Made by a program: the position numbers and the translations under genes. Below are positions 3,183 through 35,400 of a DNA stretch of 64,000 nt, piece by piece. Each line of letters opens with the position of its first letter. Within the stretch, counting starts at the first letter, position 1. Below the pieces are notes generated by a model that did not search any database, had not been told where the DNA came from, and saw only the letters and a program-made list of their open reading frames with translations. The DNA is from an uncultured Myxococcales bacterium (GTDB taxonomy: Bacteria > Myxococcota_A > UBA9042 > CAZBRS01), in the NCBI GenBank assembly GCA_964494475.1, contig CAZBRS010000018.1, positions 26,058-90,057 on the forward strand, in the 5' to 3' direction.

Positions 3183-3194
3183 GTTCTCTCTCGG

Positions 3195-3230
3195 GGGGAG
3201 GGGAGCCCCGTGCTCCCTTCCCCCTTTTCT
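3195..3230 (+). terminator. Rho-independent-like terminator after the Cys-rich gene
   Basis: 11-bp stem GGGGAGGGGAG / CTCCCTTCCCC (one G-U pair), 7-nt loop, followed by CTTTTCT. Confidence 0.55.
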
Positions 3231-3248
3231 CCTCTCTCTCCCAAAAAC

Positions 3249-3276
3249 TTGCCGAAGCCCCGGGCGGCCCTAGAAT
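3249..3276 (+). promoter_or_regulatory. Sigma-70-like promoter candidate (TTGCCG-N16-TAGAAT)
   Basis: Hexamers at 3249-3254 and 3271-3276, 33 nt upstream of the ATG at 3309. Supports the internal start over 3210. Confidence 0.4.
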
Positions 3277-3308
3277 CGAGCCCGAATCAACTGGCGCGGT
3301 GCGGGTCC

Positions 3309-3932: not shown

Positions 3933-3934
3933 CC

Positions 3935-7720: not shown

Positions 7721-7842
7721 TCGAAGCCCGTGACATTCCGGGCGGCTGCGTGTAGAGAAATTGCTCGGTTCGCGAGCCCGGCGGGGGCCGCCCGGATCGT
7801 GGAGCCCGCGTTCTTTCACGGGGAACGCGGTTCGGCGGGCCG

Positions 7843-7858
7843 TGGCACGGGGATTGCT
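7843..7858 (+). promoter_or_regulatory. Sigma-54 (-24/-12) promoter
   Basis: TGGCACG-GGGA-TTGCT matches the consensus TGGCACG-N4-TTGCW exactly. Lies 20-33 nt upstream of the lipoprotein start codons. Confidence 0.65.
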
Positions 7859-7890
7859 GGTAACGACGTCGCACGGAAATGGGGGGAACG

Positions 7891-9447: not shown

Positions 9448-9458
9448 GGAGGCCCGCC

Positions 9459-10112
9459 ATGAGACGCATGCTGCCGATCCTCTTCGTGCTGCTGGTCCCG
9501 GCGTCGCTCGGCGCGCGTGACCTCGAGATCTTCGTGGGGGCGCGGGGCGGCCTCACGTTGTCGCACGGCTTCATCGACCAGTTCGACCGCCGCACCGTGT
9601 CGAGCCCTCACGTGGGGCTGGCCGTCGAGGTGTTCGACGATCTGCTGGTCGAGGTGAGCTACGCGACGTTGCGGGCCGAGGGCCGGGTGTTCCAGGAGTA
9701 CGCCACCGAATGGTCGGCCCACGCCGCCGAGGTGGGGGCGCGCTACGTGTGGCCCGTGCTGCCGTGGCTGCGGCCCTATGCGCGGCTGACCGGGGGCGTG
9801 CTCTTCGAGACGTACACGCTGGAGGGGCCCGGTCTCGAGGTGCGCGCGAAGCAGGTCGGCTTCGAGGTGCTGCCCCTCGCGGGCCTCGAGGTGCTGTGGC
9901 CCACCGACGCGCTGGCCGCCAACGAGGGGCTGTTCGACAAGGCCACGGGCGGGATCTATCTGGAGCTGGGGTACCGCTACGTGCTGCCGTTCGACGTGGG
10001 CCGCCGCGCGCCGGCCAGCGGGTTCGAGGGCGCGACCTCGACGCCGCTCGACCTGGGCGCCTTCGACGTGCAGGGCTTCGTGTTCGGTGGCGGCTTCGTG
10101 GGTCATTTCTGA
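9459..10112 (+). CDS. Outer-membrane beta-barrel-like protein
   Basis: Signal peptide MRRMLPILFVLLVPASLGA, alternating amphipathic strands, C-terminal ...GGGFVGHF ending in Phe. Confidence 0.5.
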   Translation: MRRMLPILFVLLVPASLGARDLEIFVGARGGLTLSHGFIDQFDRRTVSSPHVGLAVEVFDDLLVEVSYATLRAEGRVFQEYATEWSAHAAEVGARYVWPVLPWLRPYARLTGGVLFETYTLEGPGLEVRAKQVGFEVLPLAGLEVLWPTDALAANEGLFDKATGGIYLELGYRYVLPFDVGRRAPASGFEGATSTPLDLGAFDVQGFVFGGGFVGHF

Positions 10113-10130
10113 TTCGGGCGGGAGGATACC

Positions 10131-18916: not shown

Positions 18917-19714
18917 TCAGCGCCGTGCGTCCTCGTCTCGCGGCGCCGGGCGCTCGGGCGGCGGTGACGGTTTGTGAAAGATCTCGTGCGCGTCCGCGTA
19001 GAGCGAATCCAGGCTGGCTCCATCGTGCGCTTTGAACAGTCCCTTGATTCGCAGCTCCATCTCCGGCGAGAAAGACCCATTCTCTTCCAGGTGCTGCTTT
19101 GGCATGTTCAATCTTCCGAGTATTATCGTGTCATTTACATATGGTCGAATTTTTCTCAGCAGGGGTCTCAGGTCCTCATCCAGCATCGGCTCGCACGAAA
19201 CGCTCGTGGCGAACCCTGCCGAGTGGGCGTACTTCAAGCATTCGAGCCGCTCCGAGAACTCCGGGGCCCCGGGCTCCCAGTACCGCAGGGTCTCCGGGTC
19301 GCACGAGCCGATGGTGAACCTGAACAGTATCCTGTCCTTGAATTCCGAAAAGCGTTCACATATGGCTGCAATGCACTGCAGTTGTGGTTTGGAGACCAGG
19401 AGCACCCGGGCGTAGGCGGTGAGCAGTTCGGCGATGAAGTCGAGGCACTCCGGCAGGATTTCTGGCGTGATGTCGTGCGTCGACGGGAACATCACGGTCT
19501 CTTGGAGCAGGGGCGTGCGTGGCTTGATCTTGCGCCTGCTCCTGCGCATCTTCGGATCTTTCCATCCATTGATGTCTGTACGTTTGAAGCGTATGGAAAC
19601 AGCCTTCGCGTGACAATACAGGCAGTTGTTAGAGCAGCCTATGGCTATATTTTTTTCTGTGTCTGCCCACTTTTTTGGTCCGTGAGTGTCATTTTTTATG
19701 TCATAATTGCCCAT
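18917..19714 (-). CDS. Radical SAM protein, SplB/COG1533-like
   Basis: IAIGCSNNCLYCHA (CxxxCxxC). Conspicuously low GC. Start is 2 nt after the upstream stop. Confidence 0.8.
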   Translation of the reverse strand: MGNYDIKNDTHGPKKWADTEKNIAIGCSNNCLYCHAKAVSIRFKRTDINGWKDPKMRRSRRKIKPRTPLLQETVMFPSTHDITPEILPECLDFIAELLTAYARVLLVSKPQLQCIAAICERFSEFKDRILFRFTIGSCDPETLRYWEPGAPEFSERLECLKYAHSAGFATSVSCEPMLDEDLRPLLRKIRPYVNDTIILGRLNMPKQHLEENGSFSPEMELRIKGLFKAHDGASLDSLYADAHEIFHKPSPPPERPAPRDEDARR

Positions 19715-19716
19715 GG

Positions 19717-20686
19717 CTACCTCTCTCGTTCGCGATCGCCGTGATCTTGTGCATCACGTTGAGGTCCGGGCCGAGGGGGATCGTCGCTGAGGTAGCCCCC
19801 ATGCCGGTGCCCGCACAACTCGAAGAACCGCCCGCCGAGCTGCAGGTTGTTGCGCAGGATTCGTCCCCAGCTCGATTCGGGCGGGTACGTCTGCAGCAGA
19901 ATGTGGCGGATGTCGTCGGGGGCGCTCCAGATCTCGCCAAGGGTCGACATCTCGTCGATCCGGCCGAGGTGACACGCGCGCTTCAGCGCCGGAAAGCTCT
20001 CTTCGAGGTAGATCGCCGCCGACCAGTACACGTTCCCATCGCAGTCGACGACGGCGTCGTTGTGGAGGAGGAAGGGCGCGATGGGCTCTGCCGCGTTCAT
20101 CAACAGCGGCGGGGACTTCCTGGCGATCAGATCACCGATCTCCTGGAGAAAGCGGGACGCCTCGTCCTCCGACCACTCGATCCCGACGCGAAAGAAGATC
20201 TCGACCCGCGGCACTCCGGCGGCCGCCAGGGTGTTCATGGTGGCGTGCACCGTACCAAGGTCGGAGGGCGCGACCACGACGTTCACGCAGTGCCACACGC
20301 CGGCCTGTCGGAGCAGCGCCGAGCGCCGGGCGGCGACGTCCTGGCCGCAGGCGAGGTTCAGGAACACCTGCAGCCGCTCGGCCGGGAAGATCCCCAGCGT
20401 GTCGTCGTCGAGCCGGAGCCCGTTGGTCGCCAGCGCATAGCGCACCCGCTTGCCGGAGCCGAGGGCGCGGCGTTCGGCCAACGCCACGGCTTCGCGCACG
20501 AGATCCGGGCGCTCCAGGGGCTCGCCGCCGAAGAAGACCAGCGTGACCTCGGCCCCCTGCGACGTGAACAGGAGGTCGATCGATCGGACCAGGAGATCGG
20601 AGCCCATGTCCTCCGTGCGCTTGTCGACCCGGCAGTAGGCGCAGCGAAGAGCAACTCCTCGTGACCATGACCTGCAGGTGGCGCAT
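19717..20686 (-). pseudogene. Radical-SAM paralog with frame disruption inside the CxxxCxxC motif (pseudogene or sequence error)
   Basis: Frame A from ATG 20686 reads MRHLQVMVTRSC. The frame of ORF 19717..20607 continues LRCAYCRVDKRTEDMGSDLL...GGEPL. Relative to the plus-strand paralog (CSLRCSYC), two nt of one codon are missing near 20650. Confidence 0.6.
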
Positions 20687-20717
20687 GCCCGGACCGGGGT
20701 TCGGGTCTGGCGTCACG

Positions 20718-21407
20718 TTAGCCATCGGCTCGGCTCGTGCGTGGCCCGAAGGGTTCGGTCGGGTAGGCGTGCCGGCCGGACTTCCGCAGCATGACCACGG
20801 CCTCGAAGCGGTCGGGCGTCGGATCGGCGGCGGGGTCGACGTGGACGAGCCGGCAGGTCTCCACGTAGTCGGGATTCCACGAGAAGAGGCGCGAATAGTC
20901 CATCTTGTAGCTGAACATCCCTTCTCGTGGCAGGTAAGGGTTCTTGTAGGGGAACGGTGGGCAGAAGTCCGACACGACCATCGTCCCTCCGTCGCGCAGG
21001 CACCGGTCGGCTTCGCAGGCGATCTTGAAGAGGTGCCTTCGGTCAACCAGGTACAGGCAGAAGCCCAGGATGATCGTATCGAAGGACTCGTCCGGATACC
21101 CCAGGTCGTCGGCGGTGCCGATGCGAAGGTCCAGCTCGGGCCAGGTGGCCTTCCCGTCCTCGATGGCGATCGTCGACGGGTCAATCCCATGACACTCCGT
21201 CCCGAAGAGCGCGTGGATCCGGCTCAGTCGACAGCCGTTGCTGCAGCCCACCTCGAGGAGTCGGGCCGGACGGAGGGACATCGCCTGCAACGCCGAGACG
21301 ACGCGGTCGCTCTTCTTCATGAACGACTCGCGATTCTGGCGGAACCACCCATCGCCTTCGGACGCGAGGAAGAGGTCTCTCTGCAACGTGCTCTCGTGGG
21401 TCGTCAT
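20718..21407 (-). CDS. Class I SAM-dependent methyltransferase (resembles the methylase family of pseudaminic-acid/flagellin-glycosylation loci)
   Basis: Motif I LLEVGCSNG, post-I HGIDPS, DTIILGFCLYLV, tail FPYKNPYLPREGMFSYKMDY. RBS GGAGAGGGAAG. Confidence 0.8.
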   Translation of the reverse strand: MTTHESTLQRDLFLASEGDGWFRQNRESFMKKSDRVVSALQAMSLRPARLLEVGCSNGCRLSRIHALFGTECHGIDPSTIAIEDGKATWPELDLRIGTADDLGYPDESFDTIILGFCLYLVDRRHLFKIACEADRCLRDGGTMVVSDFCPPFPYKNPYLPREGMFSYKMDYSRLFSWNPDYVETCRLVHVDPAADPTPDRFEAVVMLRKSGRHAYPTEPFGPRTSRADG

Positions 21408-21485
21408 GGCCCCTGCTTCCCTCTCCGGCGGCCCGGTGCTTCCCCCGGTTCTCGCCGGCCGGGGTCACCTCCGCTGCTGTCCCCA

Positions 21486-21514
21486 ATGATGACGACGGGT
21501 GCGGAGAACGTCAA
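21486..21514 (-). promoter_or_regulatory. Weak sigma-70-like promoter candidate for the minus-strand operon (TTGACG-N17-CATCAT)
   Basis: Read on the minus strand within the 250-bp divergent intergenic region. Confidence 0.25.
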
Positions 21515-21634
21515 GCCACCCGCCCGCCGCGCAGGCCCGAGCCGCTCGTTCGGGAGGGAGGTCGCGTTCGACCGGGACGCCCGCGGGGTGAGTCGTCGGA
21601 GGGCCGCGCTTCGAGCCCGGCGGGGGCCCCGGCG

Positions 21635-21662
21635 TTGACTTCGACCAGGCCCAACGTATGCT
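21635..21662 (+). promoter_or_regulatory. Sigma-70-like promoter candidate (TTGACT-N16-TATGCT)
   Basis: If used, the first ATG (21658) lies inside the -10 element. The true start would then be ATG 21670, 21691 or 21727 (MYHLELMVTRSC, colinear with the paralog start). Confidence 0.3.
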
Positions 21663-24255
21663 CACGGCGATGTCTTTCCCGTGGAATCCGATGAAACGCG
21701 CGCCCGCGCCCGTGCCCGACAGGCAGATGTATCACCTGGAGCTCATGGTCACCCGGAGCTGCTCCCTGCGCTGCTCGTATTGCCAGGTCGATCGGCGCCA
21801 GGAGAGCATGTCTCCGGAGATCGTGCGGGCTTCGGTGGAGTTTCTGTTCACCGCGGGCGCCGGCGACCTCGAGCTGCTCTTCTACGGCGGAGAACCGCTC
21901 GAGCGGTTCGATCTCGTCCGCCTGGCCGTCGAGCTCGCCGAGCAGCGCTCCGCCGAAACGGGCAAGCGCGTGAGCTACATCCTGATCACGAATGGGCTCC
22001 GCCTCGATCAGCACGTCCTGCGGGCCTTTCCGGCCGACCGCCTGAAGGTCTACCTCAATCTCGTCGCCCCCATGCCCGCCAGGCAGGCGGAGGGCCCGGG
22101 CGCTGTGTTGCCCTCCGAGATCCGGGGTCGCGTGGCGATGCTCGAAGCCGCCGGCGTCTGGCAATGCGTGAACGTCGTGGCCGATCCGGCCGACCTCGAG
22201 CCCCTGCGCTGGGCGCTGGCTGCGTTGACCCAGGCCCGCGTGCCGCGGCTGCAGGTGTTCTTTCGACTGGGCGCCGAGTGGCCGGAGGAGGCCGAGGCCG
22301 CGTTCCTCGACGAGATCGGCCGCCTCGTGGCCGGCCCCGACGTGCCCAGATTCCTGAACGCCGAAGAGCGAATGGCCCCGTTTCTCCTGCACAACGACCC
22401 CGTGGTCGACTGCGACGGCAGCCTCCATTGGTCGGCCGCGATCTGGCTCGAGCAAGGGTTCCCCGAGCTCATGCAGAGCTGTCGCATCGGTCACGTGCGC
22501 GAGACCACCAGCTTCGACGAGGTCTGGGCCGAGCCCGACGACATCCGCCGGATCCTCCTCGAGACCTATCCCCCCCAGTCGCCCCAGGGCCGGATCCTTC
22601 ACAACAACGTGGCGCTCGCCGACCGCTTCTGCCGGGTATGTGCCGCGTCGCCAGCCGGATCGCCCCCCCTGCCGGCCGTGTCGCCGAATTCGGGCCACCC
22701 GGAGCGCCGGGCGTTCTTCCTGTGCAGCACGGAGGCCGGTTGCCCGGTCAACCTGTCGTTCACCATCCAGTTTCACAACTACATCACGGAGAACGAGTGG
22801 TCCTTCCGCGACGTCGAGTCGTCCGATACCATCGTCATCGTGAACTGCAGCACGCTGCCCGAGTATCGGCGCCGCGTGCCGCTCACGGTCGAGTATCTGG
22901 CGAAGCGCTATCCGTCGAAGACGATCCTCGTCACGGGTTGCTTCGTGAAGCACGACGTGGTCGAAGCCGACAACGTCATCTACGTGAAGATGTCGCGCAA
23001 GGACGACTTCGACGCGCTCTTCGGGGCGACCGTCCGGTTCAAGGACGTGTCGCCGATCTCGACGGCCGAGGCTGACACGAAGGTGCGCGCGCTCGACGCC
23101 GCGAAGAAGGGTGGCGTGCCCTACAACATATCCATTGCCACCGGCTGTACGAACAACTGCTCTTTCTGTATCCAGAAAACGATATTTACGACAATCGAAA
23201 GCGTGCCTGTTGATGCTGTAATTTCTGGCTTGTTGGATGGAATTGAAAAAGGGTATACGAATTTCGTGATCGGTGGTGCCGACATCTCGTCCTATGGTCA
23301 CGACCTCGGCATCGACGTGACCGACCTGTTCGAGGCCTTGTTCACCCGGGTGCTCCGCGCGAACCCCCGGCTGTCGATCGGATTCTGGGCGTTCGAACCC
23401 CGCGGGCTCCTGAAGCACTTCGAGGAACTGAAGGCCTACTTCGCCGAAGGCTTGATAAACTGGGTGCGAATTCCCGTTCAATCCGGCAGCGACAGCGTCC
23501 TGAAGAGCATGAACAGGAAGTACAAGGTAAGAGACGTTCTGGATGCTATAAACGAATTGCGCATCCTGTCTCCTGCCATGAGGATCGACACGGATCTGCT
23601 CTTCTGCTATCCGACCGAGACCGAGGCAGATTTCGAAGCGTCCCTCGGAATAATTGACTATTTCGACGCCACGAGCCTGATCGTCTTCGGCCGGCACGAG
23701 AACACCCGGGCCTTCGCGATGCAGGATGTGTTCTCGGCTGACGAGAAGGCGCGCCGGTGCGAGGTGCTCGAGTCGATTCGGGCGAAGCAGACCGCGGGCA
23801 AGGAGAGCCAGGCAAGCCAGGGCATCGAGATCCAGTTGCCGTCGGCGCAGGGCGCGTCTCGGTTCTTCGTTCTCCAGGAGTCTGACCTTCAGCGTCCGGC
23901 GCTCCAGACGCCGCGGCCTCCCGAAGCGCCGCGCCCCGAGGAGGTCGGCGCCGCTCCTGCCCCCGACGACGCCGACACGGCGCGCCTGCGCCGCGTGGGC
24001 GAACTGCTGGCCGGCAAGGGCATCGAGCTCCAGTGGGCCGAGGGGCGCCTGGACCTCGTCTTCCCGGATGACGCGCAACCCGACGGCACGTCCTGCGTGT
24101 CCGTGTCCAGGGTCTCCGACGGCGCGAACGTGTACGGCAAGAGCGGGGCCCTCGGCGTGTGGCACTCCGGGAGCCTCCTCACGCCACGCATCTCGAGGGT
24201 GCTCTCGGGCGTCCTGCAGCAGCTCGAGCGCCTGCGCAGCGAAGCGTCGGACTGA
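21658..24255 (+). CDS. Double radical-SAM fusion: radical-SAM paralog + MiaB/RimO-like methylthiotransferase module + novel C-terminal domain
   Basis: N-terminal part has CSLRCSYC + GGEPL, about 50% identical by eye to the minus-strand paralog. Middle part is UPF0004-like (IVIVNCS...VTGC) then IATGCTNNCSFC...IPVQSGSDSVLKSMNRKY. The last 95 aa are shared with the second U32 protein. Confidence 0.8.
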   Translation: MLTAMSFPWNPMKRAPAPVPDRQMYHLELMVTRSCSLRCSYCQVDRRQESMSPEIVRASVEFLFTAGAGDLELLFYGGEPLERFDLVRLAVELAEQRSAETGKRVSYILITNGLRLDQHVLRAFPADRLKVYLNLVAPMPARQAEGPGAVLPSEIRGRVAMLEAAGVWQCVNVVADPADLEPLRWALAALTQARVPRLQVFFRLGAEWPEEAEAAFLDEIGRLVAGPDVPRFLNAEERMAPFLLHNDPVVDCDGSLHWSAAIWLEQGFPELMQSCRIGHVRETTSFDEVWAEPDDIRRILLETYPPQSPQGRILHNNVALADRFCRVCAASPAGSPPLPAVSPNSGHPERRAFFLCSTEAGCPVNLSFTIQFHNYITENEWSFRDVESSDTIVIVNCSTLPEYRRRVPLTVEYLAKRYPSKTILVTGCFVKHDVVEADNVIYVKMSRKDDFDALFGATVRFKDVSPISTAEADTKVRALDAAKKGGVPYNISIATGCTNNCSFCIQKTIFTTIESVPVDAVISGLLDGIEKGYTNFVIGGADISSYGHDLGIDVTDLFEALFTRVLRANPRLSIGFWAFEPRGLLKHFEELKAYFAEGLINWVRIPVQSGSDSVLKSMNRKYKVRDVLDAINELRILSPAMRIDTDLLFCYPTETEADFEASLGIIDYFDATSLIVFGRHENTRAFAMQDVFSADEKARRCEVLESIRAKQTAGKESQASQGIEIQLPSAQGASRFFVLQESDLQRPALQTPRPPEAPRPEEVGAAPAPDDADTARLRRVGELLAGKGIELQWAEGRLDLVFPDDAQPDGTSCVSVSRVSDGANVYGKSGALGVWHSGSLLTPRISRVLSGVLQQLERLRSEASD
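23968..24252 (+). other. Shared C-terminal domain, copy 1
   Basis: RLRRVGELLAGKGIELQW...FPDDAQPDG...LGVWHSGSLLTPRISRVLSGVL. 39/81 identical, ungapped, to the copy at 26427..26684. Confidence 0.7.
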
Positions 24256-24297
24256 GCACGGCGGGCCACCGATGGTCGGGAGAATGGGGAGGACAGG

Positions 24298-25236
24298 GTG
24301 ACATCGTCACGGACGCTGCCGGCAGGAGCCACGCGCGCTGCGCCCGGGCCCGTCGCCCCCCGACTGCCGGCGGGCGAGGATGCCGGAGCGCGGCCGGAGT
24401 GGGCGATCGCCGCGGGGGTCCCCGAGATCCAGGCGGCGGAGGCCTCGGGCGACCTGCAGCCCGCCGAGAGAGGATGGTCGGCGACCCTGTACAGCGGCGA
24501 ACCGGTGGTCTTTCAGCGGCTCTACGCCGGGGAGGAGTTCTGTCGCCACCTGATCCCCGGTCGCACGCGATGGCGATCGCTCCTGGCCCTGGCCGAACGG
24601 CGCGGCGTGCCCGTCACCCTGACGACCCCGCCCGCGACCGAGGACGACCTGGCCCGTCTCTCCGTGCTGTTCCGAATGCTCTCGGGGTCGCCGGGAGCCG
24701 AAGTCGTGGCCAACGACTGGGGCGTGCTGAGCCTCGTCCGGCGACGATTTCCCGACCTGCGTCCGCTCCTGGGGCGAGGCCTGCGTCGCCAGAGGAAGGA
24801 TCCACGATCCAAGGACCTCGCCCACCCGGGAGCCATGGCCCGGGAACTGCAGGACCTCCTCGCCCACCTTGGCGTCGATCGGGTCGAGGCCGACTGGTTG
24901 CCCGACGACGCGTCGCCCATCCCGCTGGTGATGCACGTGCCCTTCGCGTTCCTGGCCAGCGGCAGCCTGTGCGCCCTCAGCGGCTTGAATCGGCCCGTCT
25001 ACGAGAAGTTCCGCCCCGACCAGCCCTGCGCCGCGCCGTGCCGCGGGCTTCGGGCGCAGCTCCGCCACGCCGCGTTCAGCGCGCCGGTGCTGCTGAAGGG
25101 CAACACGCTGTTCGGTCAGAATGGCGTGGGCCTGGCCTCGGCCGCCCGCCCCGACGTCGCGCGCCTCGTGTACGACCTGGACACCGACGTGGAGCGGCGG
25201 TTCCTGAGGCCGACCCCCGAGGCCCGAAGACCATGA
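24298..25236 (+). CDS. U32-family protein, UbiV-like
   Basis: LYAGEEFC..., VVANDWGVL, HVPFAFLASGSLCALSG...DQPCAAPC, the four-Cys layout of U32 Fe-S proteins. GTG start with a GGAGG RBS. Confidence 0.7.
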   Translation: MTSSRTLPAGATRAAPGPVAPRLPAGEDAGARPEWAIAAGVPEIQAAEASGDLQPAERGWSATLYSGEPVVFQRLYAGEEFCRHLIPGRTRWRSLLALAERRGVPVTLTTPPATEDDLARLSVLFRMLSGSPGAEVVANDWGVLSLVRRRFPDLRPLLGRGLRRQRKDPRSKDLAHPGAMARELQDLLAHLGVDRVEADWLPDDASPIPLVMHVPFAFLASGSLCALSGLNRPVYEKFRPDQPCAAPCRGLRAQLRHAAFSAPVLLKGNTLFGQNGVGLASAARPDVARLVYDLDTDVERRFLRPTPEARRP

Positions 25237-26687
25237 AGATCGTAGCCGCCATAGCCACTTCCGCAGACGTGGAGCCCCTGATCGCGGCCGGCGCCGACGA
25301 GCTCTACTGCGGGGTCGTACCGGCCGGGCTCGGGCGCACGGAGGATGCCTGCCGGTTGAACCGTCGCTACAGCCCGAACGCGAACATCGGCAGCCTCGAC
25401 GACTTCGCCGCGCTCGTCGAGAGCGCGCGCGCCCGGGCCGTGCCGGTCTCGGTGACGCTGAACGAGCACGCGTACGACCCGGAGTTGATCCCGGCGCTGG
25501 TCGAGCTGGCGGGCAACCTGGCGGCGGCGGGCGCCCACGCGCTGATCGTGACGGATCTCGCGCTGATCCTGGCGATCCGACGGGCGGGAGTGGCGGTGGA
25601 CCTGCACCTCTCCAGCGTCGCCACCTGCTACAACTCCGAGGCCGCGAGGTTCTTCGCCGATCTCGGGATCCAACGCGTCATCCTTCCCAGGTACCTCTCG
25701 CCCCGGCAGATCTCCGTCCTCCGTGCAGCCGGCGCACCGGTCGACTACGAGGTCTTCGTCATGAACGACGGCTGCGGGTTCGAGGAGGGGCTTTGCATGA
25801 GCCTGCACCGGCCCCTCGGGCCCATGTGCCAGATGCCGTGGGACGCCGAGTTGGTGTCCGACGGGCCGATCTCGCCGGCGCTCGCCCAGGCCTGGGACGA
25901 GAACTGGAAGGCGTACCGGTGCTTGATGAATCTCCTGGACCACCCCGGCGGCACGGTCTCGCCCCAGGGCATTCCCAACGGCCCCTGCGGGGTGTGCGCG
26001 TTGCCGGCGTTGAAGGCGGCGGGCGTCGGCTACGTCAAGGTGCCCGGCCGGGAGTACCCGCCCGCGGTCCGATCCGGAGCGGTTCGGTTCGTGAAGACCG
26101 TCCTCGACGCGGTCGAGCGCGGAGAATCGTCCGAGGCCGTGCAGGGCCGGGCGCGGGCCCTGAAGGCCACGCCCCTGCTGTGCGACAGCACCCTGACGTG
26201 CTACTTCCGTGCGGGCATCCCGTCCGGTGGCTCGAACCCCGTCGTCGTTCCGGACCTCTCCCTGGCCGACCTCGCGGCCGCGGTTCGCTTCCAGCGTGGA
26301 GCGATGGGGGAGGCGTGCCGTCCAACGGGGGCGTGCAGCCCGGGTGCCCCGTCGGATTCCCCGACCGTGGAGGCAACTCCGCCGCCGCCGCCCGCCGCCG
26401 CCGTTCGCTCGACGCCGGACGTCGAGGGGCCCGACGCGACGCGCCTTCGACGAGTCGCGGACGCGCTGGGCGACAAGGGCATCGGCGTCCGGTGGATCGA
26501 CCGGGGGCTGGAGCTCTCCTTCCCCGACGACGCGCAACCCGGAGGCGCCTCCCGCGTCACGGTGGCCGCGATCGATCCGGCCACGCGCTGCTTCGCGACG
26601 AGCGGAGGCCTCGGGCTCTGGTATTCGGGGGGCGTCCTGACCCCGCGCGTGGCGCGGATGCTCAAGGGAATCCTGCGGCTGCTCTGA
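25233..26687 (+). CDS. U32-family protein, UbiU/RlhA/TrhP-like, with extra C-terminal domain
   Basis: AAGADELYCG, VSVTLNEHAY, HALIVTDLAL, RVILPRYLS, EVFVMNDGCGFEEGLCMSLHRPLGPMC. ATGA overlap with the upstream U32 gene. Confidence 0.8.
   Translation: MKIVAAIATSADVEPLIAAGADELYCGVVPAGLGRTEDACRLNRRYSPNANIGSLDDFAALVESARARAVPVSVTLNEHAYDPELIPALVELAGNLAAAGAHALIVTDLALILAIRRAGVAVDLHLSSVATCYNSEAARFFADLGIQRVILPRYLSPRQISVLRAAGAPVDYEVFVMNDGCGFEEGLCMSLHRPLGPMCQMPWDAELVSDGPISPALAQAWDENWKAYRCLMNLLDHPGGTVSPQGIPNGPCGVCALPALKAAGVGYVKVPGREYPPAVRSGAVRFVKTVLDAVERGESSEAVQGRARALKATPLLCDSTLTCYFRAGIPSGGSNPVVVPDLSLADLAAAVRFQRGAMGEACRPTGACSPGAPSDSPTVEATPPPPPAAAVRSTPDVEGPDATRLRRVADALGDKGIGVRWIDRGLELSFPDDAQPGGASRVTVAAIDPATRCFATSGGLGLWYSGGVLTPRVARMLKGILRLL
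26427..26684 (+). other. Shared C-terminal domain, copy 2
   Basis: RLRRVADALGDKGIGVRW...FPDDAQPGG...LGLWYSGGVLTPRVARMLKGIL. Confidence 0.7.
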
Positions 26688-26812
26688 CGCGACCGAGGGG
26701 CGGCCTTTCTCCGCCGCGCCGCGCGCCTTGAGATTCGAGCGCGGGCGCGCAGGCCCTTCCTCGGGCTCCCGACTCTTGGTAGAATCTTCGGGCGGATGAG
26801 GCGGTGGGTCGC

Positions 26813-28276
26813 ATGACGAGAAGCGGGTTCGAATCCTCCTTCGGTCTCTTCGTGATCCTGCTCACCGGCCCATGGCTCGCGGGGGCGTGTTCGGCCGAGG
26901 GCACGGCGAGCGCCGACGTGACCACGGCTCCGGATCTGGTCGTCGTGCCCGCCGGCTTCGACGGTGACGCCTTGCTGGGCACCCTGGACTCCACGGGGTG
27001 CTTCGACCTTTGCACCTGGATCGGCGCCGAGTTGCTGGACGAGGCTCCGGTGAGCATCTGCTCCTCCGTGGACTACTGCCTGTCGTTCTGCGCCCTCGCG
27101 CCGAAGCTGGCGACCCGGCCGTGCGACGTCAGCCTGGCCGAGTTCGCCACGTGCATGGACGCCGCCGGAGCCTCGCCGTGCACGAATCCGACCGACTCCC
27201 TCGACAGTCCCGCGTGCTTCGGGGTCTGGGCCTGCATGATGCTGCCCGGCGACACGGTCAAGGTGGCCGAGATCGAGCACCTGGCGATGCGGCTCCTCTG
27301 CGACGAGTTGAGCCTGGCCATGGGCGTGCCGTTCTCGCCGACCCCGCAGCCGACGTGGTCGGAGTGCGTCTCTTCCCTCCTGGGCTTCGCGTGCCGCTGC
27401 ACCGCCGAGGACCCGGCCGGTCTTTCGGCAGGCTGCGCGGTGACCGTCGGTGACGCGCTCGCGTGCATCGACCTCGCGAAGCCCGGAGACCTGCCGGACA
27501 GCCCGGGCTGCGCTCCCTTCCGGACCCAGGTCTCCGGGGCCTACGATCCGGACGCCCACCTCGTCGATCTCGACTGCGTGCAGGTCCGGAAGCTGTGCCA
27601 GGATTCCATCCCCGAGCAGGGCAACCTGCCCGAGAGCCCTGCGTGCAAGCCCGAGAACGGCGTCCTCGATGCAGATTACCGGGCCCCCGTGGAGACCTGC
27701 ATCGCCTCGGTCGGCTCCCTTCGCTGCCACTGCGACGCCAACCCGGCGGGACCCGGCTGCGACGCGGGCATCGACCGGCTGCAGTCGTGCATCGCCGACA
27801 GCTACGTGGACGGATGTGCCTATCTCGGCAGCGGCGTCTGCATCGCGCCGGGCAACCAGGCCTCGGGGATCCCGGGCGACGTGAAGATCTCGGAGGCCTC
27901 TGCCGACCTCCTCGAGCAATGGTGCTCGTGGCGCGTCTGCTTCGGCGGAGGGCCGGACTTCGCGGGCCACGGATGCGTGAGCGGTGCGTTCGCGACGCAG
28001 GTGCCGGACGTGGCCGGGTGCGTCGAGGACCTGACGTACCACTTCGCTGCCTGCGACGTGACGATCGCCGACGTGGAGCAGTGCCTGTACGCCGTCCACA
28101 CGAGCGATTCCTGCGAGCGCCTGGCCACGTTCGGCGCCTGCACCTCCGTCGAGAACAAGGCGCTCGCGTACTCGGTGTGCCACTACCTGTACTACGAACC
28201 TTGTGACGCGGTCGTCAACTGCCTCGCCGCCGGCTGGGACATCCCCCTGCAGCCGCCCGACGGCTACTCCCTGTGA
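26813..28276 (+). CDS. Cysteine-rich lipoprotein, function unknown
   Basis: Signal ...FVILLTGPWLAGAC. Many paired Cys. An alternative GTG start exists at 26804. Confidence 0.6.
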   Translation: MTRSGFESSFGLFVILLTGPWLAGACSAEGTASADVTTAPDLVVVPAGFDGDALLGTLDSTGCFDLCTWIGAELLDEAPVSICSSVDYCLSFCALAPKLATRPCDVSLAEFATCMDAAGASPCTNPTDSLDSPACFGVWACMMLPGDTVKVAEIEHLAMRLLCDELSLAMGVPFSPTPQPTWSECVSSLLGFACRCTAEDPAGLSAGCAVTVGDALACIDLAKPGDLPDSPGCAPFRTQVSGAYDPDAHLVDLDCVQVRKLCQDSIPEQGNLPESPACKPENGVLDADYRAPVETCIASVGSLRCHCDANPAGPGCDAGIDRLQSCIADSYVDGCAYLGSGVCIAPGNQASGIPGDVKISEASADLLEQWCSWRVCFGGGPDFAGHGCVSGAFATQVPDVAGCVEDLTYHFAACDVTIADVEQCLYAVHTSDSCERLATFGACTSVENKALAYSVCHYLYYEPCDAVVNCLAAGWDIPLQPPDGYSL

Positions 28277-30456
28277 TTCGGCGCGCCGTCCTCCTCCTCG
28301 CGGCCGTGGTGGCCTGCTCCGGGCCGCCCGGCGCGACGGAAGACGGGGGCGCCCTCGGCGACGGCGGACGTGACGAAGAGACCGCCGGCAAGGTGCCCTA
28401 CCTCACGCGACTGCCCACCGTCGAGGCGTTCGAGGCGGTGGCGGCGGGCGGTCGCGAGGTCAAATACCTCGCTCCTCTCGCGGGCTCTGCGACGACGCCT
28501 CCGCTCGTCGAGCCCTGCTACTTTCAGAACATGGACCTGTTCCCCTGGCACCTCGATTTCCTGAAGTCGTTCCCGGAGACCGAGGCCAGCACGATGGCCG
28601 AGTACTCTGCCTGGGTGCTCCGCGGCCCGACGCGCCGCTGGTGGGGAGGCTCCCTTCGCCGCTGGCCCGCCGTCGCCCACCCCGTGACGCGCCAACCCGG
28701 GCTCGTCACGTTCCAGGTCTACAACGAGGACGTGGCGGGGAATCCCTTCCCCCTCACGGGCATCACCGAGCTCGCGGAGACCTTGAAGACCTGCGCCGGG
28801 TTTGCGGCCGATCGGCTGGCGTTTCTCCCCCTCGGGACGAGTCAGCTCCAGGTGGCGGAGTTCTACCGGGAGGTGCTGGCCGCGAAGGGCGTCACGGTGG
28901 TCCTGCCGGAAGATCTGGCCGCGGCGTCCGGCGTCGACATCCTGGTCGAGGGGGAAGCCTACGGCTACCTGAACGTCGTCCCGGACGGACAGGCTCTCGA
29001 GGACTACGGGCCCCGGGACGTCGTCGTGGTGCGCAGCGCGCCCTCGGACCTGTCCATCGTGGCCGCGCTCATCACGGCGGATCCGCAGAACGAGTTCAGC
29101 CACGTGAACCTCCGCCTGGGCGAGAAGGGCATCCCGAACGCGTCGATTCCGGGGATCTATACCTGGCCGGACCTCGACGCGAAGCAATCCCTGCTCGTCC
29201 ACGTCGTGGCCGGGGAGAGCTCCGTCGAGATCCGGCTCGCCGCGCTCGAGGACGCAGAACGGTTCTGGGACTCCACCCGGCCCGCCTCCATCTCGGTCGT
29301 GTCGGACCTGGCTCCCGTCGCCCTGCGCGGATACGACGAGCTCCGCTTCGGCGATGCCCCGGCGTTCGGAGCCAAGGCCGCGAACCTGGGCGAGCTTCAC
29401 TCCATCCTCGCCCCGCAGGCTCGCGTCGAGGGGTTCGGAGTTCCCGTCTCGCACTACCGGAGGTTCGTCGACGAGCGGGGAGTCCAGGCCGCCATCGAGC
29501 TCATGGTGGCCTCGCCGGCCACCTTCACCGACGCCGACCTCCGCCGTGCGGCGCTGAGGTCGATCCGGGACAAGATCCGCGAGGCTCCGCTGCTCCCGGA
29601 GTTCGAGGCCGCGCTCCGTCTGCGCTTGGCCGACGTCTATGGGCCGGGGGTCGGGACGCTTCGGGTGCGGTTCCGCAGCAGCTCGAACTCCGAAGACCTG
29701 TCCGTGGCGAGCGGCGCCGGCCTGTACGCTTCGCGAAGCGGATGCCTCGCCGACGACGACGACGCCGATGACGCCGGACCCTCCGCGTGCCTGGGCGCCA
29801 TCGAGCGGGCCGAGCTCGAACGCCTGCTCGATCTGCGCCTGAAAGAGCAGGAGGACTGCCCGGACTGCCCCTGGCTCGCCGACGTCATCGCGGATCTCGA
29901 GGAGGATCTGACCGAGGAGAAGACGGTCGCGGATGCCGTGCGCAAGGTGTGGGCCAGCCTGTGGAGCGACCAGGCGTTTCAGGAGCGAGAGTACTGGGGG
30001 ATCGATCATCGCGCCGCCACCATGGCGATCGCCGTGAACCCGACGTTCGTCCTCGAGACGCGGGACGCGATCGCCGTGACGGGGCTGCCCGCGAGCGACG
30101 GGACGACGCTGGTCCGGGTGATCACGGTCGTTGCGCCCGAGAGCGTCGCAGAGCCGCTGGATCCGCGGGTCGTGGCCGAGGTCCTGACGTTCAGGAGAGC
30201 GGTCGGAGATCCCACCCCCCACGACGTGTCCGTCCTCGTGCCGTCTTCCCAGGTCGCGGGAGCGATGCCGCTCTGGACGGACGAGGAGGTCGCGAAGCTG
30301 GCCGGCCTGCTCTTCACGGCGCACGATCACTTCGCGAGCCTTCCCTGGACGGGCGCCGCCCCCACGAGCTTCGACATCGAGATCAAGAAGGACGTCGAGG
30401 GGCGGCTCGTCCTGAAGCAGGCGCGGCCCTATCTCCTCGATCCCTGGACACTCTAG
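28273..30456 (+). CDS. Lipoprotein with PEP/pyruvate-binding (PPDK_N, ATP-grasp) domain
   Basis: Signal MIRRAVLLLAAVVAC. FGAKAANLGEL...GFGVPVSHY... and VRFRSSSNSEDLSVASGAGLY match the PEP synthase/PPDK N-terminal domain. GTGA overlap upstream. Confidence 0.7.
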   Translation: MIRRAVLLLAAVVACSGPPGATEDGGALGDGGRDEETAGKVPYLTRLPTVEAFEAVAAGGREVKYLAPLAGSATTPPLVEPCYFQNMDLFPWHLDFLKSFPETEASTMAEYSAWVLRGPTRRWWGGSLRRWPAVAHPVTRQPGLVTFQVYNEDVAGNPFPLTGITELAETLKTCAGFAADRLAFLPLGTSQLQVAEFYREVLAAKGVTVVLPEDLAAASGVDILVEGEAYGYLNVVPDGQALEDYGPRDVVVVRSAPSDLSIVAALITADPQNEFSHVNLRLGEKGIPNASIPGIYTWPDLDAKQSLLVHVVAGESSVEIRLAALEDAERFWDSTRPASISVVSDLAPVALRGYDELRFGDAPAFGAKAANLGELHSILAPQARVEGFGVPVSHYRRFVDERGVQAAIELMVASPATFTDADLRRAALRSIRDKIREAPLLPEFEAALRLRLADVYGPGVGTLRVRFRSSSNSEDLSVASGAGLYASRSGCLADDDDADDAGPSACLGAIERAELERLLDLRLKEQEDCPDCPWLADVIADLEEDLTEEKTVADAVRKVWASLWSDQAFQEREYWGIDHRAATMAIAVNPTFVLETRDAIAVTGLPASDGTTLVRVITVVAPESVAEPLDPRVVAEVLTFRRAVGDPTPHDVSVLVPSSQVAGAMPLWTDEEVAKLAGLLFTAHDHFASLPWTGAAPTSFDIEIKKDVEGRLVLKQARPYLLDPWTL

Positions 30457-31965: not shown

Positions 31966-32277
31966 TCAAGGGAGCGCGGCCTCAGGGCCGGGCCGCAGCT
32001 GGATCAGGGTCGCGCCCCACCCGCCCGCGCCGGAGTCGGCTGTTCGGAACGACAGGACGGCGGGGTGACGCTGGAGCACGCCCTCGACGATGCGACGCTG
32101 CACACCCACGCCCTTGCCGTGGATCACCCGCACGCCGAGGATGCCCCGCGCGCGGCATTCGTCGAGGTACGTGGCCACCACGTCGGCCACGTCGCGGGGC
32201 CGGAACGTGTGCAGGTCGAGGGTGCCGTCGATGGGCACCTCGACGGGCTCGCCGTCGTACGCGTCGTCGTCGGTCAT
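31966..32277 (-). CDS. Smr-domain protein
   Basis: IDGTLDLHTF...VRVIHGKGVGVQR...SGAGGWGATLIQL. RBS GAGGTGG. Only the 3' end of the 1791-aa listed ORF is real. Confidence 0.8.
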   Translation of the reverse strand: MTDDDAYDGEPVEVPIDGTLDLHTFRPRDVADVVATYLDECRARGILGVRVIHGKGVGVQRRIVEGVLQRHPAVLSFRTADSGAGGWGATLIQLRPGPEAALP

Positions 32278-32421
32278 GGACCACCTCGTGGCGAGGATAC
32301 CACACCGGCCCTCGTTGGCTTGCGTCACCTCGGTCAACAGCGTACGCTTTTCGGGCAGGCGACGACGGCCGGGCGCGCGGGCGCCCGATCGCACCGCTGC
32401 CCCCACCCGCTCGAGACGACC

Positions 32422-35400
32422 ATGCCACGATCCGTAGTGCTGGTTGCGCGCTTCTTCGGGTTGCTCGCGGCCACCACGCTCCTGGCGGCCTGCCAGGGCC
32501 ACCGGGCGACGACCGGCGAGCCCGACGCCGATGCCCGCGTGGAGGACGCCACCTGCGGCGCCTCCGACTGCCATGACGCGGCCCCTGACGCACACGACGC
32601 GGCGCCCGACGGTCATGACGCGGCGCCCGATGGCCATGACGCGGCGCCCGATCTCCACGACGCGGCGCCCGATGGCCATGACGCGGCGCCCGAGATCGAG
32701 GACGCGACCCCCGAAGGTCATGACGCGACGCCTGAAACGGCCCCTGACACGGCCGACGCGGCGCCCGAGGGCCATGACGCGGCGCCCGACCTCCACGAGG
32801 TGGCGCCCGAGATCGATGACGCAGCGCCCGATCTCCACGAGGTGGCGCCCGATCTCCACGAAGTGGCGCCCGAGATCGAGGACGCGACCCCCGAAGATCA
32901 CGACGCGGAGGTCGAGAGCGCTGACGCCGAGGTCGAGGCCCTCGACGCCGAGGGCGAGGCTCCCGACGTGGCCGTGGACGACTGCCCGGAGGACCCCGAC
33001 AAGGTCGCTCCCGGCCTCTGTGGCTGCGGCGCGGTCGACACCCCGAACTGCGCCGAGATCCTGCCCCCGAACCCCGATCCGCCGGGTTGGCAGGACCCCC
33101 CCCACGCGACCGGCCCCACCTCGCTCGCCATGACGGTCGAGCCGCTCTCCGACCCGAGCGGCGTCGAGGTCTACTTCGCGTGCGTCGCGGGCCCCTGCCA
33201 CGACAGCGGCTGGCAGGACGGCGACACGTACGAAGACACCGGCCTCGCCCCCGACCACGCCTGCGCGTACCGCGTGAGGGCCCGCGACAAGAGCCCGAAC
33301 CAGAACGAGACCGCCTGGTCGCCGGAGGCGCTCGCGACCACCGAGCGCGACCCGGGCTACGCCGCGGGCCTCGAGGCGCGCTTCTTCGAGCTCGCGGGAG
33401 ACGCGACGACGTTGCCCGACTTCGCCGGGTGGCCCGCCGACGTGGCGCGCCTCGACCCCGTGCTCGACTACTCCGCTTCGCCGTGGCCCTGGCCCGGCCT
33501 GGGTTCCGCCTTCGCCGCAGGTGTTGCCAGTCGCCACGCGGGCTTCCTGCGCGTCTCCGCGGCGGGGGTGGTCACGTTGGCGCTGGGGGGCGACGGCCTG
33601 GCTCGGCTCTGGCTCGACGGCGAGCCCCTCCTCGACCTCCCGGCCGCAGACCCCGGCGCCCTGGGGGCCTCGGCCAGCCGGTCCCTCGAGGTCGGCTACC
33701 ACGCGCTGCGCGTCGACTTCCTCTCCACGGCCACGCCCGCGTCCCTGATGCTGTCGTGGCGGGGCCCGGAGTCGACGCCCGACGTGGTTCCGTCCACGGC
33801 CCTGTACCACGCCGACCCTCCCGACACGCAGCCGCCGGCGCCGAGCCCCCTGGCCTTCGAGATCCCCCCCACCGTGACGGGCCCCGCCTCCCTCACCATG
33901 ACCGCCGTGGCCGCCACCGACGCGGCCGGCGTGCAGGTCGCCTTCCTGTGCGTGCAGGGCGGCGGACCGTCGAGCGGCTGGCAGGCCGACCGAAGGTACG
34001 AGGCCATCGGCCTCCAGCCGGGGACGGTCTACGGGTACCGCGTGGTCGCCCGTGACGTCGGCATGAACGACAACACCGGCCTGCCCTCGGCGGTCGGCTT
34101 CGCGACGACCGACACCTACGTGCCCGATCTCGTGGGGCTCGAGCGGTCCCTGGCCGAGGCGGCGCTGGCCGACGCCGCGTTGGTGCCCGGCGACGTGTCG
34201 AACGCGCACAGCGCCACGGTGCCCGCCGGCCGGGTGATCGAGCAGAGCCCGGTCGTGGGCGAGGTGCTCCCCGCCGGCGCGACGGTCTCGTTCGTGGTGT
34301 CGCAGGGGCCCGAGTTGGTCGAGGTGCCCGACGTGGTGGGCCTGACCGCTGCCGAGGCCTCTGGCGCGCTGGCGGCCGCCGGGCTCGCGGTGGGCCCGGT
34401 CACGTTCGCCGCCAGCTGCACCGAGGCGCCCGGCAGCGTGCTCAGCCAGCAGCCGCAGGCCGGCGGCACGGCGCCGAAGGGCGGGGCGGTCAGCCTGGTC
34501 GTGTCGCGCGGGCCCGAGCAGGTCGTCATCACCGAGCTCCTGTACCACCCGGTGAAGGACGACGTGCTGCACGAGGAGTTCGTGGAGCTGTACAACCCCT
34601 GCGCCCACCCCGTGAACCTGGAGGGCTGGCAGGTGTTGGGCCTCGGGCCGTTCACCTTTGGCGCGGGGGCGTCGATCGAGGCCGGGGGGTACGTGGTGCT
34701 GGCCGAGGACGCCGACGCGTTCCTGGCGGCCTACGGGTTCGAGCCCGACGCCGTGGTCGCCGGGGCGTCGCTGGCCAACAGCGGCGAGCGCGTGGCGGTG
34801 ACCACGGCCGCCGGGCTCGTCGTCGACACGGTCACCTACGACGACGTGGCCCCGTGGCCGGTCACCCCCGACGGCCTGGGACCGTCGCTCGAGGTCGTCG
34901 ACCCGTCCGAGGACAACGCCACGCCCCGCAACTGGCACGCCTGCGTCGCCGCCGCGGGGAGCACGCCGCGGGCGGTCAACAGCGTCGACGCCGAGGGCCT
35001 TCCGCCCTGGCTCAGCGAGGTCCGGCACGGGACGCCCGAGGTCGGAGCGCCGATCGAGGTGACCGCGCTCGTCGAGGACGCGACCACGGTCACCCTGACG
35101 TACGTGCTCGACTGGGGCACCCCCGCGAGCCTGGCCCTGCAGGACGACGGTCAGAGCGCCGACGGCGAGGCCGGCGACGGGGTCTTCGGGGCGGTGCTCC
35201 CCGGCCAGGCGGTCGGCACGCTCGTGCGCTACCGCCTCGACGCCGTCGGGCCCACGGGCTCCATGGGCTACCCGCGCGACGACGACACGGTGATCTACAC
35301 GGGCACGTACCTGGCGCCGCCGGTCGAGACCGATCTCGACGTGTTCCATTGGCTCCTCGACCCCGTCGACTACGCCGACGCGCTCGCGCACTACTGGACC

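Follow-up and report, generated by a model that had tools for sequence, protein, structure and literature searches.

A previously unclassified C-terminal domain shared by a double radical-SAM fusion and a U32 protein in a Myxococcales gene cluster: a possible tethered co-recruitment module

The window analysed here is the whole of a 64-kb stretch of DNA (64,000 nucleotides, ~70% G+C) from contig CAZBRS010000018.1 of an uncultured Myxococcales bacterium. It contains a cluster in which a protein with two radical S-adenosylmethionine (SAM) modules is encoded beside a pair of U32-type proteins, here called U32-1 and U32-2, and the subject of our analysis is a domain of ~85 amino acids (aa) that is found at the C-terminus of both the radical-SAM fusion and U32-2. 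The two copies are referred to as copy A and copy B, respectively, and numbers starting with P and L are our handles for related proteins and loci. The features concerned are:

21658..24255, + strand: double radical-SAM fusion, 865 aa, consisting of a QhpD/PapB-like radical-SAM module, a methylthiotransferase (MTTase)-like module, a Pro/Ala linker and the shared domain
21712..22647, + strand: N-terminal QhpD/PapB/HxsB-like radical-SAM module of the fusion (aa ~19-330)
22738..23808, + strand: MiaB/RimO-like MTTase-type module of the fusion (aa 361-717), with no TRAM domain
23878..23967, + strand: Pro/Ala-rich linker ahead of copy A, read directly from the sequence
23968..24252, + strand: shared domain copy A, aa 771-865 of the 865-aa open reading frame (ORF) 21658..24255, modelled as alpha-beta5-alpha
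24298..25236, + strand: U32-1, 312 aa, UbiV-like partner subunit as judged by hhalign and cysteine pattern; its stop codon overlaps the U32-2 start (ATGA)
25233..26687, + strand: U32-2, 484 aa, UbiU-like U32 protein whose catalytic core is followed by a short conserved segment, a Pro/Ala linker and the shared domain
26223..26426, + strand: C-terminal extension of U32-2 ahead of the domain, a conserved 'L-x-L-A-D-L-A-A-A-x-R-F-Q' segment followed by a Pro/Ala-rich linker
26427..26684, + strand: shared domain copy B, aa 399-484 of the 484-aa ORF 25233..26687

The sequence-only reading of this DNA had proposed that one C-terminal domain of ~85 aa is appended to two unrelated enzymes, and had counted 39 identities in 81 positions by hand. 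The computed comparison bears this out, and the hand count was essentially right: the two copies align without gaps, with 40/84 identities and 57/84 positives (BLASTP E=2e-28, with compositional adjustment). Every one of the blocks listed in that reading (RLRRV, KGI, FPDDAQP, LG-W-SG and LTPR) is present in both copies. The similarity goes well beyond composition, as the Smith-Waterman score of copy A against copy B is 219, while 2000 shuffles give 26.7 +/- 5.0 (z=38). At the nucleotide level the copies are 68% identical and are therefore not the product of a recent duplication. The Pro/Ala-rich linkers noted ahead of both copies are there as well, RPALQTPRPPEAPRPEEVGAAPAPDD in front of copy A and SPGAPSDSPTVEATPPPPPAAAVRSTPD in front of copy B. 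No third copy of the domain was found in the window by tblastn or by a six-frame HMM scan.

In the structure predictions both copies behave as well-folded units. AlphaFold2 modelled copy A with a pLDDT of 89.2 from an alignment of two sequences, and copy B with a pLDDT of 90.3 from an alignment of eight, 4/5 of the latter models reaching at least 88.9. The topology is identical in the two models: a helix (residues 2-14), five strands (20-24, 27-33/37, 40/41-48, 57-59 and 62-67) which form a five-stranded antiparallel sheet, and a final helix (73-85/94). Since two separate runs gave the same topology and since Pro/Ala-rich linkers precede both copies, the segment should be an independent fold unit, and we take it, from these models, to be an autonomously folding, previously unclassified domain of ~85 residues.

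The domain had not been recognised by eye, and our searches likewise matched it to no known generic domain. Neither copy gave a match at E<=0.1 in Pfam and NCBIfam, a six-sequence profile found nothing at E<0.39 in the PDB sequence set, and Foldseek returned nothing at E<=0.001 from the PDB for either model. The top Foldseek neighbours of both models were the AMPK alpha C-terminal domain, the SOS2 C-terminal domain and the KA1 domains of MARK3 and METTL16, followed by RWD-type kinetochore domains, with query-normalised TM scores of 0.44-0.56, E values of 0.02-0.6 and 7-14% identity; for KA1 and the AMPK alpha C-terminal domain (alpha-CTD) the rmsd was 5-7 A. In these models the likeness to KA1 and the AMPK alpha-CTD appears weak, one of fold class alone and without sequence signal. 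A resemblance to frataxin/CyaY and to type III chaperones was considered and rejected (TM<=0.36). TRAM is a small all-beta barrel without helices; Pfam gave no TRAM match (PF01938) at E<=0.1 for the 86- and 95-aa segments or for the full fusion, and the models show a helix, five strands and a long helix, so that a TRAM identity is rejected. The same holds for ACT, which has no Pfam or NCBIfam match here and a beta-alpha-beta-beta-alpha-beta order as opposed to alpha-beta5-alpha, and for a PqqD-like RiPP recognition element (RRE), as there is again no Pfam or NCBIfam match and the topology is not that of a three-stranded sheet with a three-helix winged-helix bundle. No RRE-containing chain occurs among the Foldseek matches listed.

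Conservation is concentrated in two places, an exposed hairpin with the consensus F-P-D-[DE]-A-Q-P-x-G and a G-x-L-G...G...T-P-R segment which leads into the last helix. Residues L14, F32, D34, Q37, G60, G68, T72, P73, R74 and L86 are invariant in 11 aligned copies; a twelfth copy, P0021, has TPG at 72-74, thus R74 is not invariant across all copies, and its hairpin reads FADDAQA. The hairpin and the T-P-R loop are conserved alike on both types of host. The outward residues of the sheet are polar, and the best-conserved elements are charged or polar loops, with no hydrophobic patch. The domain is about neutral (net charge -1 to +4) and has no conserved basic patch.

The radical-SAM host is an unusual protein. 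Pfam recognises two Radical_SAM stretches in it and gives a weak UPF0004 match (22.5 bits vs a cut-off of 27), and there are two CX3CX2C motifs, C35/39/42 and C497/501/504. Residues ~19-135 are related to peptide maturases in NCBIfam, namely PapB (8e-21), QhpD (3e-17) and HxsB (1.5e-15), with all scores far below the cut-offs: for QhpD, aa 19-134 correspond to positions 88-210 of TIGR03906, i.e. the first third of the core, with 62.5 bits vs a cut-off of 453, and for HxsB the score is 56.9 vs 370 bits. The other models also start late (HxsB at position 87, CcpM at 80, nif11 at 76 and SCIFF at 99). As the alignments begin at model positions 76-99, it can be concluded that this module is devoid of the N-terminal 75-100 residues of these maturases. 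By tblastn, residues 60-221 of the QhpD from locus L010 align to window positions 21628..22071, beginning 30 nucleotides upstream of the annotated ATG at 21658, and the three fusion orthologues have merely 27-36 low-complexity residues ahead of the radical-SAM core.

The second module of the fusion covers positions 8-368 of the 429 in the MTTase model TIGR00089 (aa 361-717). Its score of 176.7 bits lies under the cut-off of 251, yet the three N-terminal cysteines of MTTases (C362-x34-C397-x30-C428) are kept together with C497-x3-C501-x2-C504. The TRAM part of TIGR00089 is unmatched, and copy A sits in the slot where a TRAM domain would usually be found, as the sequence-only reading had stated. 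A short 'I-x-L-P-S...F-x-V-L' hairpin lies just ahead of the linker of the fusion, and it also ends stand-alone MTTase-like genes of L003 and L004. These genes occur in tandem (L003 6527..8985, 404 and ~440 aa; L004 17846..20259, 390-410 aa) and carry neither TRAM nor the shared domain. With such paralogues lacking both, the domain is not literally a replacement for TRAM.

The other host, U32-2, is a member of peptidase U32 (PF01136 at 104.3 bits vs a gathering cut-off of 22.4). It scores 73.9 bits (1.2e-20) against the UbiU model NF047963, whose cut-off is 440, and 14.8 bits against the UbiV model NF047965 (cut-off 275). Eight cysteines of U32-2 are invariant in the family; those of C181-x6-C188-x10-C199, C252/C255 and C317/C323 are invariant in the subfamily, with a spacing unlike that of UbiU. 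For comparison, UbiV has the pattern CXnCX12CX3C, and the four-cysteine Fe-S motif of U32 proteins is of the type CX6CX15-16C (PMC6747719).

U32-1 had been labelled the first U32 protein of the pair. It has no match in Pfam or NCBIfam, and it is by profile comparison and cysteine pattern only that it is U32/UbiV-like: hhalign places it on the N-terminal half of the U32-2 family (P=5e-4, 108 columns) and matches it to the corresponding partner from the L010 qhp operon (probability 99.6%), and its cysteines are arranged as C82...C225-x18-C244-x3-C248. A partner of this type accompanies U32-2 in 36/37 related loci of at least 8 kb. The hhalign matches, the cysteines and the co-occurrence identify the 312-aa U32-1 as a putative UbiV-like partner of U32-2. 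Together the two are presumed to form a two-subunit Fe-S enzyme of the UbiU/UbiV type, that is, an O2-independent hydroxylase; U32 proteins have been proposed to be prephenate-dependent, O2-independent hydroxylases (PMC10990095).

In order to place the domain among known proteins, a profile of the two copies was scored exhaustively with HMMER against 1.84 billion representative proteins. There were 8 matches, of which 2 (P0006 and P0008, FN3/Ig-like repeat proteins) were rejected as spurious. The true matches comprise both window proteins, three orthologues or fragments of U32-2, the fusion orthologue P0005 (882 aa) and a contig-edge fragment, P0007. The latter (80 aa) could have passed for a free-standing domain; this was rejected, as it starts at the edge of its contig (L007 4..246) and is followed by a U32-like gene, and so is a truncated C-terminus. 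Searches with the full proteins added the U32-2 orthologues P0009, P0010, P0011, P0014 and P0015 and, as the third orthologue of the fusion, P0021 (872 aa). A word-indexed homologue search with the domain alone found nothing, and a first metagenome scan with the domain pattern gave no confirmed locus. In all, 12 copies are known, and their hosts are exclusively orthologues of the two window proteins. They come from uncultured, high-GC, Deltaproteobacteria-like bacteria, the sole named source being a groundwater metagenome-assembled genome (MAG) labelled Deltaproteobacteria (GCA_016218785.1). The domain is thus novel but very rare, being present in about a dozen metagenomic proteins.

The pairwise identity among the 12 copies is 24-76%, with most pairs at 42-57%, and the three copies borne by radical-SAM fusions are 44-55% identical to every other copy except the truncated P0007. 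The copies group neither by host enzyme nor by genome; the monophyly of the radical-SAM copies was not resolved in a neighbour-joining tree of all 12. From the absence of such grouping and the low identities it follows that the duplication is old and that both copies have long been maintained under selection.

The domain is primarily a feature of U32 proteins. Even there it is the exception: a metagenome scan for the U32-2 subfamily gave 198 confirmed matches, 80 of whose loci were retrieved, and 79 of these 80 had no match to the domain, the single bearer being identical to P0009. Many subfamily members have ~330 residues and end directly after the catalytic core. In L003, L008 and L011 and on the contigs of P0014 and P0015, a domain-bearing U32 protein occurs with no domain-bearing radical-SAM protein nearby, therefore tying the two enzymes together cannot have been the original role of the domain. 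All three fusion orthologues carry it, and two of them, in the window and in L004, have a domain-bearing U32-2 gene as their immediate neighbour; no U32 gene was recognised on the 8.7-kb contig of P0021. The simplest history, judging from these sequences, would be an origin of the domain on U32-2, with a copy passing later to the fusion next to it. In P0014 and P0015 (both from JGI 3300075153) the CX6CX10C cysteines of the U32 core are lost, while a well-conserved domain and a U32-1-type neighbour are kept; these two proteins may be paralogues with a scaffolding rather than a catalytic function.

For the U32 pair, the nearest relatives occur in a setting that points to a peptide or protein substrate. 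In L010, a domain-less relative (P0019) and its U32-1-type partner close a complete quinohemoprotein amine dehydrogenase (QHNDH) operon (2254..11020), in which QhpA, QhpD, QhpC, QhpB and QhpE score above the NCBIfam cut-offs and an ABC exporter takes the position of QhpF. Among the 37 retrieved loci of at least 8 kb, 27 have QhpA, QhpD and QhpC, 28 have QhpB, and 30 have QhpE and QhpF; further loci with the pair embedded in complete qhp operons are L015, L020, L024, L026, L030, L053, L073, L080 and others. The order is usually qhpA-D-C-B-F-E followed by U32-1 and U32-2, and in some loci the pair stands between qhpB and qhpF. In the characterised pathway, the flavin monooxygenase QhpG dihydroxylates a Trp of the QhpD-cross-linked peptide QhpC, inside a QhpC-QhpD-QhpG ternary complex (PMC7876137). 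No FAD monooxygenase was seen within 10 kb of the pair in the two loci checked. Because their genes are embedded in qhp operons, these relatives very probably have as their substrate a peptide that a QhpD-type radical-SAM enzyme holds, and in tryptophylquinone biogenesis the domain-less pair may take the place of QhpG as an O2-independent system. In the literature that we searched, no paper names both U32 proteins and QHNDH or qhp; the association thus seems to be unreported so far, and it may be more consequential than the domain itself. In the window, tblastn found no homologues of QhpA, QhpB or QhpC.

Another setting is seen in L008, which belongs to the same MAG as L003. Here a domain-bearing U32 pair is convergent with genes for a radical-SAM protein, an HxsD-like protein and a His-Gly-Ser repeat protein (2567..4535; in L011, 2288..3550). 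The radical-SAM gene of L008 is TrsS/HxsC4-like, the HxsD-like protein scores 54 bits vs an NCBIfam cut-off of 41, and the pure His-Gly-Ser repeat ORF runs off the contig. By these similarities, the genes in L008 and L011 would make up a maturation set of the HXS type in bacteria other than Pseudomonadota. HxsD serves the HXS system as a small adaptor and binds HxsC (PMC13128918).

Several other radical-SAM proteins of these clusters have conserved ends of ~95-105 aa (L008 2567..2870, L011 2288..2590, L004 5977..6290 and L003 8998..9310), whose pattern of helix, strands, [CY]F-x-R/K-x-G...SY...P...helix...RLL resembles that of the domain; the rSAM463-type end in L008 and L011 follows a variable Pro/Ala linker. 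Remote homology of the domain to the ends of rSAM463 (L008/L011), rSAM668 (L004) and the B12-type radical-SAM protein (L003/L004) was not established: hhalign gave P=0.01-0.07, with 2-7 of 150 shuffles scoring as high, for candidates chosen by eye, and a two-sequence profile did no better.

The genes around the cluster in the window differ in composition. Third-position G+C (GC3) is 0.86-0.91 across 18917..30456, which takes in the cluster and its downstream neighbours, and 0.97-0.98 in the flanking beta-oxidation/ChsH2 genes. This suggests that 18917..30456 entered by horizontal transfer as an island, and that the gene at its edge is more foreign still. Upstream of the fusion, the island contains:

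18917..19714, - strand: radical-SAM protein, 265 aa, 56% GC and GC3 0.71, at the island edge
19717..20690, - strand: second QhpD-like radical-SAM core, with 2 nucleotides deleted from within the CX3CX2C codons; called as ORF 19717..20607
20718..21407, - strand: class I SAM methyltransferase, divergent, in the lower-GC3 island and found only in this window's version of the cluster

In the disrupted QhpD-like core, frame 1 reads MRHLQVMVTRSCSS and frame 2 goes on as LRCAYCRVDK. The truncated 296-aa call recurs in the independent assemblies L001 and L002, and 19717..20690 is probably a pseudogene. Downstream, two predicted lipoproteins with a stop/start overlap (GTGA) occupy 26804..30456, one of 490 aa with 39 cysteines and no family match (26804..28276), and one of 727 aa with a PPDK_N domain (PEP-utilising, ATP-grasp-like). 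Further on, a protein of 1652 aa (32065..37023) combines PA14, PASTA, lamin-tail and CotH kinase domains; this architecture is unusual, and it is unrelated to the domain. An SCP2 gene is found upstream, at 3.7 kb from the fusion gene and 7.3 kb from U32-2. Its cassette, SCP2/thiolase/ChsH2, was considered as a UbiT-like lipid link and judged unrelated, as its GC3 is 0.97 and it is absent from the related clusters. PADLOC made no defence-system assignment. We found no plausible precursor-like small ORF in the cluster, and no His-Xaa-Ser repeat ORF, HxsD homologue or other Hxs gene in the window.

How might one small domain serve two such different enzymes? The reading we favour, although with less than even confidence, is tethered co-recruitment, in which the domain would draw the two enzymes onto a peptide or protein substrate that they share. 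Both copies would recognise one partner, so that hydroxylation and radical-SAM chemistry could take place on one molecule in one assembly, and this partner would most likely be the recognition segment of a ribosomal peptide or protein substrate, or else a small chaperone that presents the substrate. We infer both the binding and the identity of the bound partner. The same conserved loops on both hosts suggest one common binding surface, and the retention of the domain on the cysteine-less P0014 and P0015 fits a recruiting or scaffolding role that is independent of catalysis. On both hosts the domain stands where the enzyme family usually has a substrate-binding domain, TRAM in the case of MTTases, and a C-terminal recognition module could make up for the lost N-terminal region of the QhpD/PapB-like module. 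The sequence-only reading had left it open whether a common substrate-recognition module would bind RNA or peptide; given the qhp-embedded relatives, the QhpD/PapB-like module and the near-neutral charge, RNA is a far less likely partner than a peptide or protein. A more specific proposal, which we consider unlikely, is that the domain is a new class of recognition or co-recruitment element and the hallmark of an uncharacterised anaerobic peptide- or protein-maturation family derived from the cysteine-tryptophylquinone machinery, in which the identical tethered domains would bring a prephenate-type U32 hydroxylase pair and the double radical-SAM protein, a QhpD-like cross-linker with an MTTase-like core, onto one ribosomal substrate. 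As a corollary, the domain-less relatives in qhp operons would be an O2-independent replacement for QhpG. Several observations weigh against co-recruitment. The window has no substrate or precursor gene, be it a small ORF, a His-Xaa-Ser repeat or QhpA/B/C. The fold is not RRE-like, and its weak neighbours KA1, AMPK alpha-CTD and RWD include heterodimerisation scaffolds, which would fit docking equally well. Finally, only one of the ~9 radical-SAM enzymes in L004 bears the domain, and in L003 the U32 protein is its sole bearer, hence the domain does not mark the enzymes of the pathway in general.

Docking, the other alternative offered by the sequence-only reading, is the main rival. The domain would associate with itself, having first dimerised the U32 protein, and the copy on the fusion would then have drawn the fusion into the U32 complex. 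Its weak structural neighbours are subunit-interaction scaffolds (the AMPK alpha-CTD, the SOS2 C-terminal domain with SOS3, CENP-O/P and the Knl1 RWD), linkers of this flexible kind are commonly seen on docking domains, it is present in all three fusion orthologues, with the fusion adjoining a domain-bearing U32-2 in the window and in L004, and there is apparently more than one domain-bearing protein per genome or sample (P0010 and P0011 in one MAG; P0014, P0015 and P0021 in one metagenome). However, several U32 pairs have no second copy nearby (L003, L008, L011 and the P0015 contig), the polar outward sheet and the placing of the strongest conservation in charged or polar loops do not resemble a hydrophobic interface patch, and the copies show no sign of co-variation or of genome-specific pairing, so we hold homotypic docking to be possible but rather unlikely. 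A module that senses a ligand or membrane in the manner of KA1 or ACT, whether by binding an acidic lipid or a quinone-like or other small molecule or by acting as an autoinhibitory lid, would leave the two enzymes sharing the domain merely through a common location or signal. KA1, the nearest fold class (TM ~0.5), does bind acidic phospholipids or autoinhibit kinases, and the UbiU/UbiV pair acts on a membrane lipid with an SCP2 helper (PMC6747719), which brings to mind the SCP2 gene 3.7 kb upstream of the fusion gene. This is improbable, though, in view of the net charge of -1 to +4 with no conserved basic patch, the lack of any Foldseek match at E<=0.001, and the SCP2/thiolase/ChsH2 cassette, which differs in GC3 (0.97 vs 0.86-0.90), is missing from related clusters and is probably unrelated.

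Two further explanations carry still less weight. Both enzymes could modify a single tRNA or rRNA nucleotide, by methylthiolation and by O2-independent hydroxylation, with the domain as an RNA-binding replacement for TRAM in whose slot it stands; MiaB-type enzymes and the U32 enzymes TrhP and RlhA act on RNA, and one of the weak structural neighbours, the METTL16 KA1 domain, binds U6 snRNA. Against this, the nearest relatives of the U32 pair stand in protein-cofactor (qhp) operons and not in RNA-modification contexts, the other half of the fusion is a radical-SAM module of the peptide-maturase type, the charge is near neutral, the MTTase-like paralogues of related clusters have no C-terminal domain at all, and a function related to translation would not go with so extremely narrow a distribution, all of which makes an RNA partner very improbable. 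It is hardly probable at all, and the least so of these explanations, that the domain is a swinging-arm carrier or self-substrate whose FPDDAQP hairpin carries, or becomes, a modified residue passed between the active sites. Lipoyl and biotinyl domains sit on Pro/Ala-rich linkers, and the tethers and exposed hairpin seen here recall the lipoyl-domain architecture; moreover, RimO-type MTTases modify an Asp in a protein loop. Nevertheless, the hairpin has no invariant Lys, Cys or Ser, P0021 carries the variants FADDAQA and TPG, an enzyme-borne substrate at 1:1 would be stoichiometric, and the fold is not a lipoyl-type barrel.

If co-recruitment onto a common substrate is correct, the domain would be a new fold for an old trick, one recognition module placed on several enzymes that act on the same substrate. 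It would also offer a handle on the substrate of a cluster that joins three rare anaerobic chemistries, U32-type O2-independent hydroxylation, QhpD-type cross-linking and MTTase-type methylthiolation. The reach of this is limited by the confinement of the domain to a handful of metagenomic sequences. The U32 proteins of qhp operons, in turn, would add peptidyl residues to quinones and RNA as targets of the proposed prephenate-dependent hydroxylation, and would make O2-free formation of a tryptophylquinone cofactor testable.

Among known systems, UbiU-UbiV is comparable to the U32 pair: the genes are likewise adjacent and translationally coupled, the UbiU-like member matches PF01136, and its partner has a UbiV-like CXnCX18CX3C pattern. 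The differences are that UbiU has no C-terminal extension, while U32-2 has a CX6CX10C motif and extra invariant cysteines. TRAM of MiaB, RimO and MtaB shares the position C-terminal to the MTTase core, whereas the window domain is predicted to have two long helices. The KA1, AMPK alpha-CTD and SOS2 C-terminal domains are likewise two-layer alpha+beta sandwiches of similar size, but they are accessory domains of eukaryotic kinases with 7-14% identity to the window domain. The QhpC-QhpD-QhpG complex brings a hydroxylase and a QhpD-type radical-SAM enzyme onto one peptide (PMC7876137); the window differs from the qhp system in having no QhpA/B/C, qhp-type U32 proteins differ in having no domain (79/80 loci), and the QhpD-like module of the window is far below the QhpD cut-off (62.5 vs 453 bits) and is fused to an MTTase-like module. 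HxsD is likewise a small module that partners a radical-SAM maturase (PMC13128918), and an HxsD-like gene lies beside the domain-bearing pair in L008; in contrast, the domain has no match to the HxsD models, and its secondary-structure order is different.

Another functional parallel would be the RRE. This is likewise an accessory domain of ~85-90 residues on unrelated enzymes of one cluster, inferred to hold their common peptide, and the QhpD-like module of the window is devoid of the N-terminal region in which the recognition domain of such maturases is usually found. The RRE differs in being a beta3-alpha3 winged helix, where the window domain is alpha-beta5-alpha and C-terminal on a long Pro/Ala tether, and no precursor peptide was found in the window. 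By analogy, a tethered co-recruitment module would thus have functional counterparts in the RRE of RiPP enzymes, in HxsD together with HxsC and in the QhpC-QhpD-QhpG complex, and RRE domains are a known precedent for the fusion of a single accessory module to more than one enzyme of a cluster.

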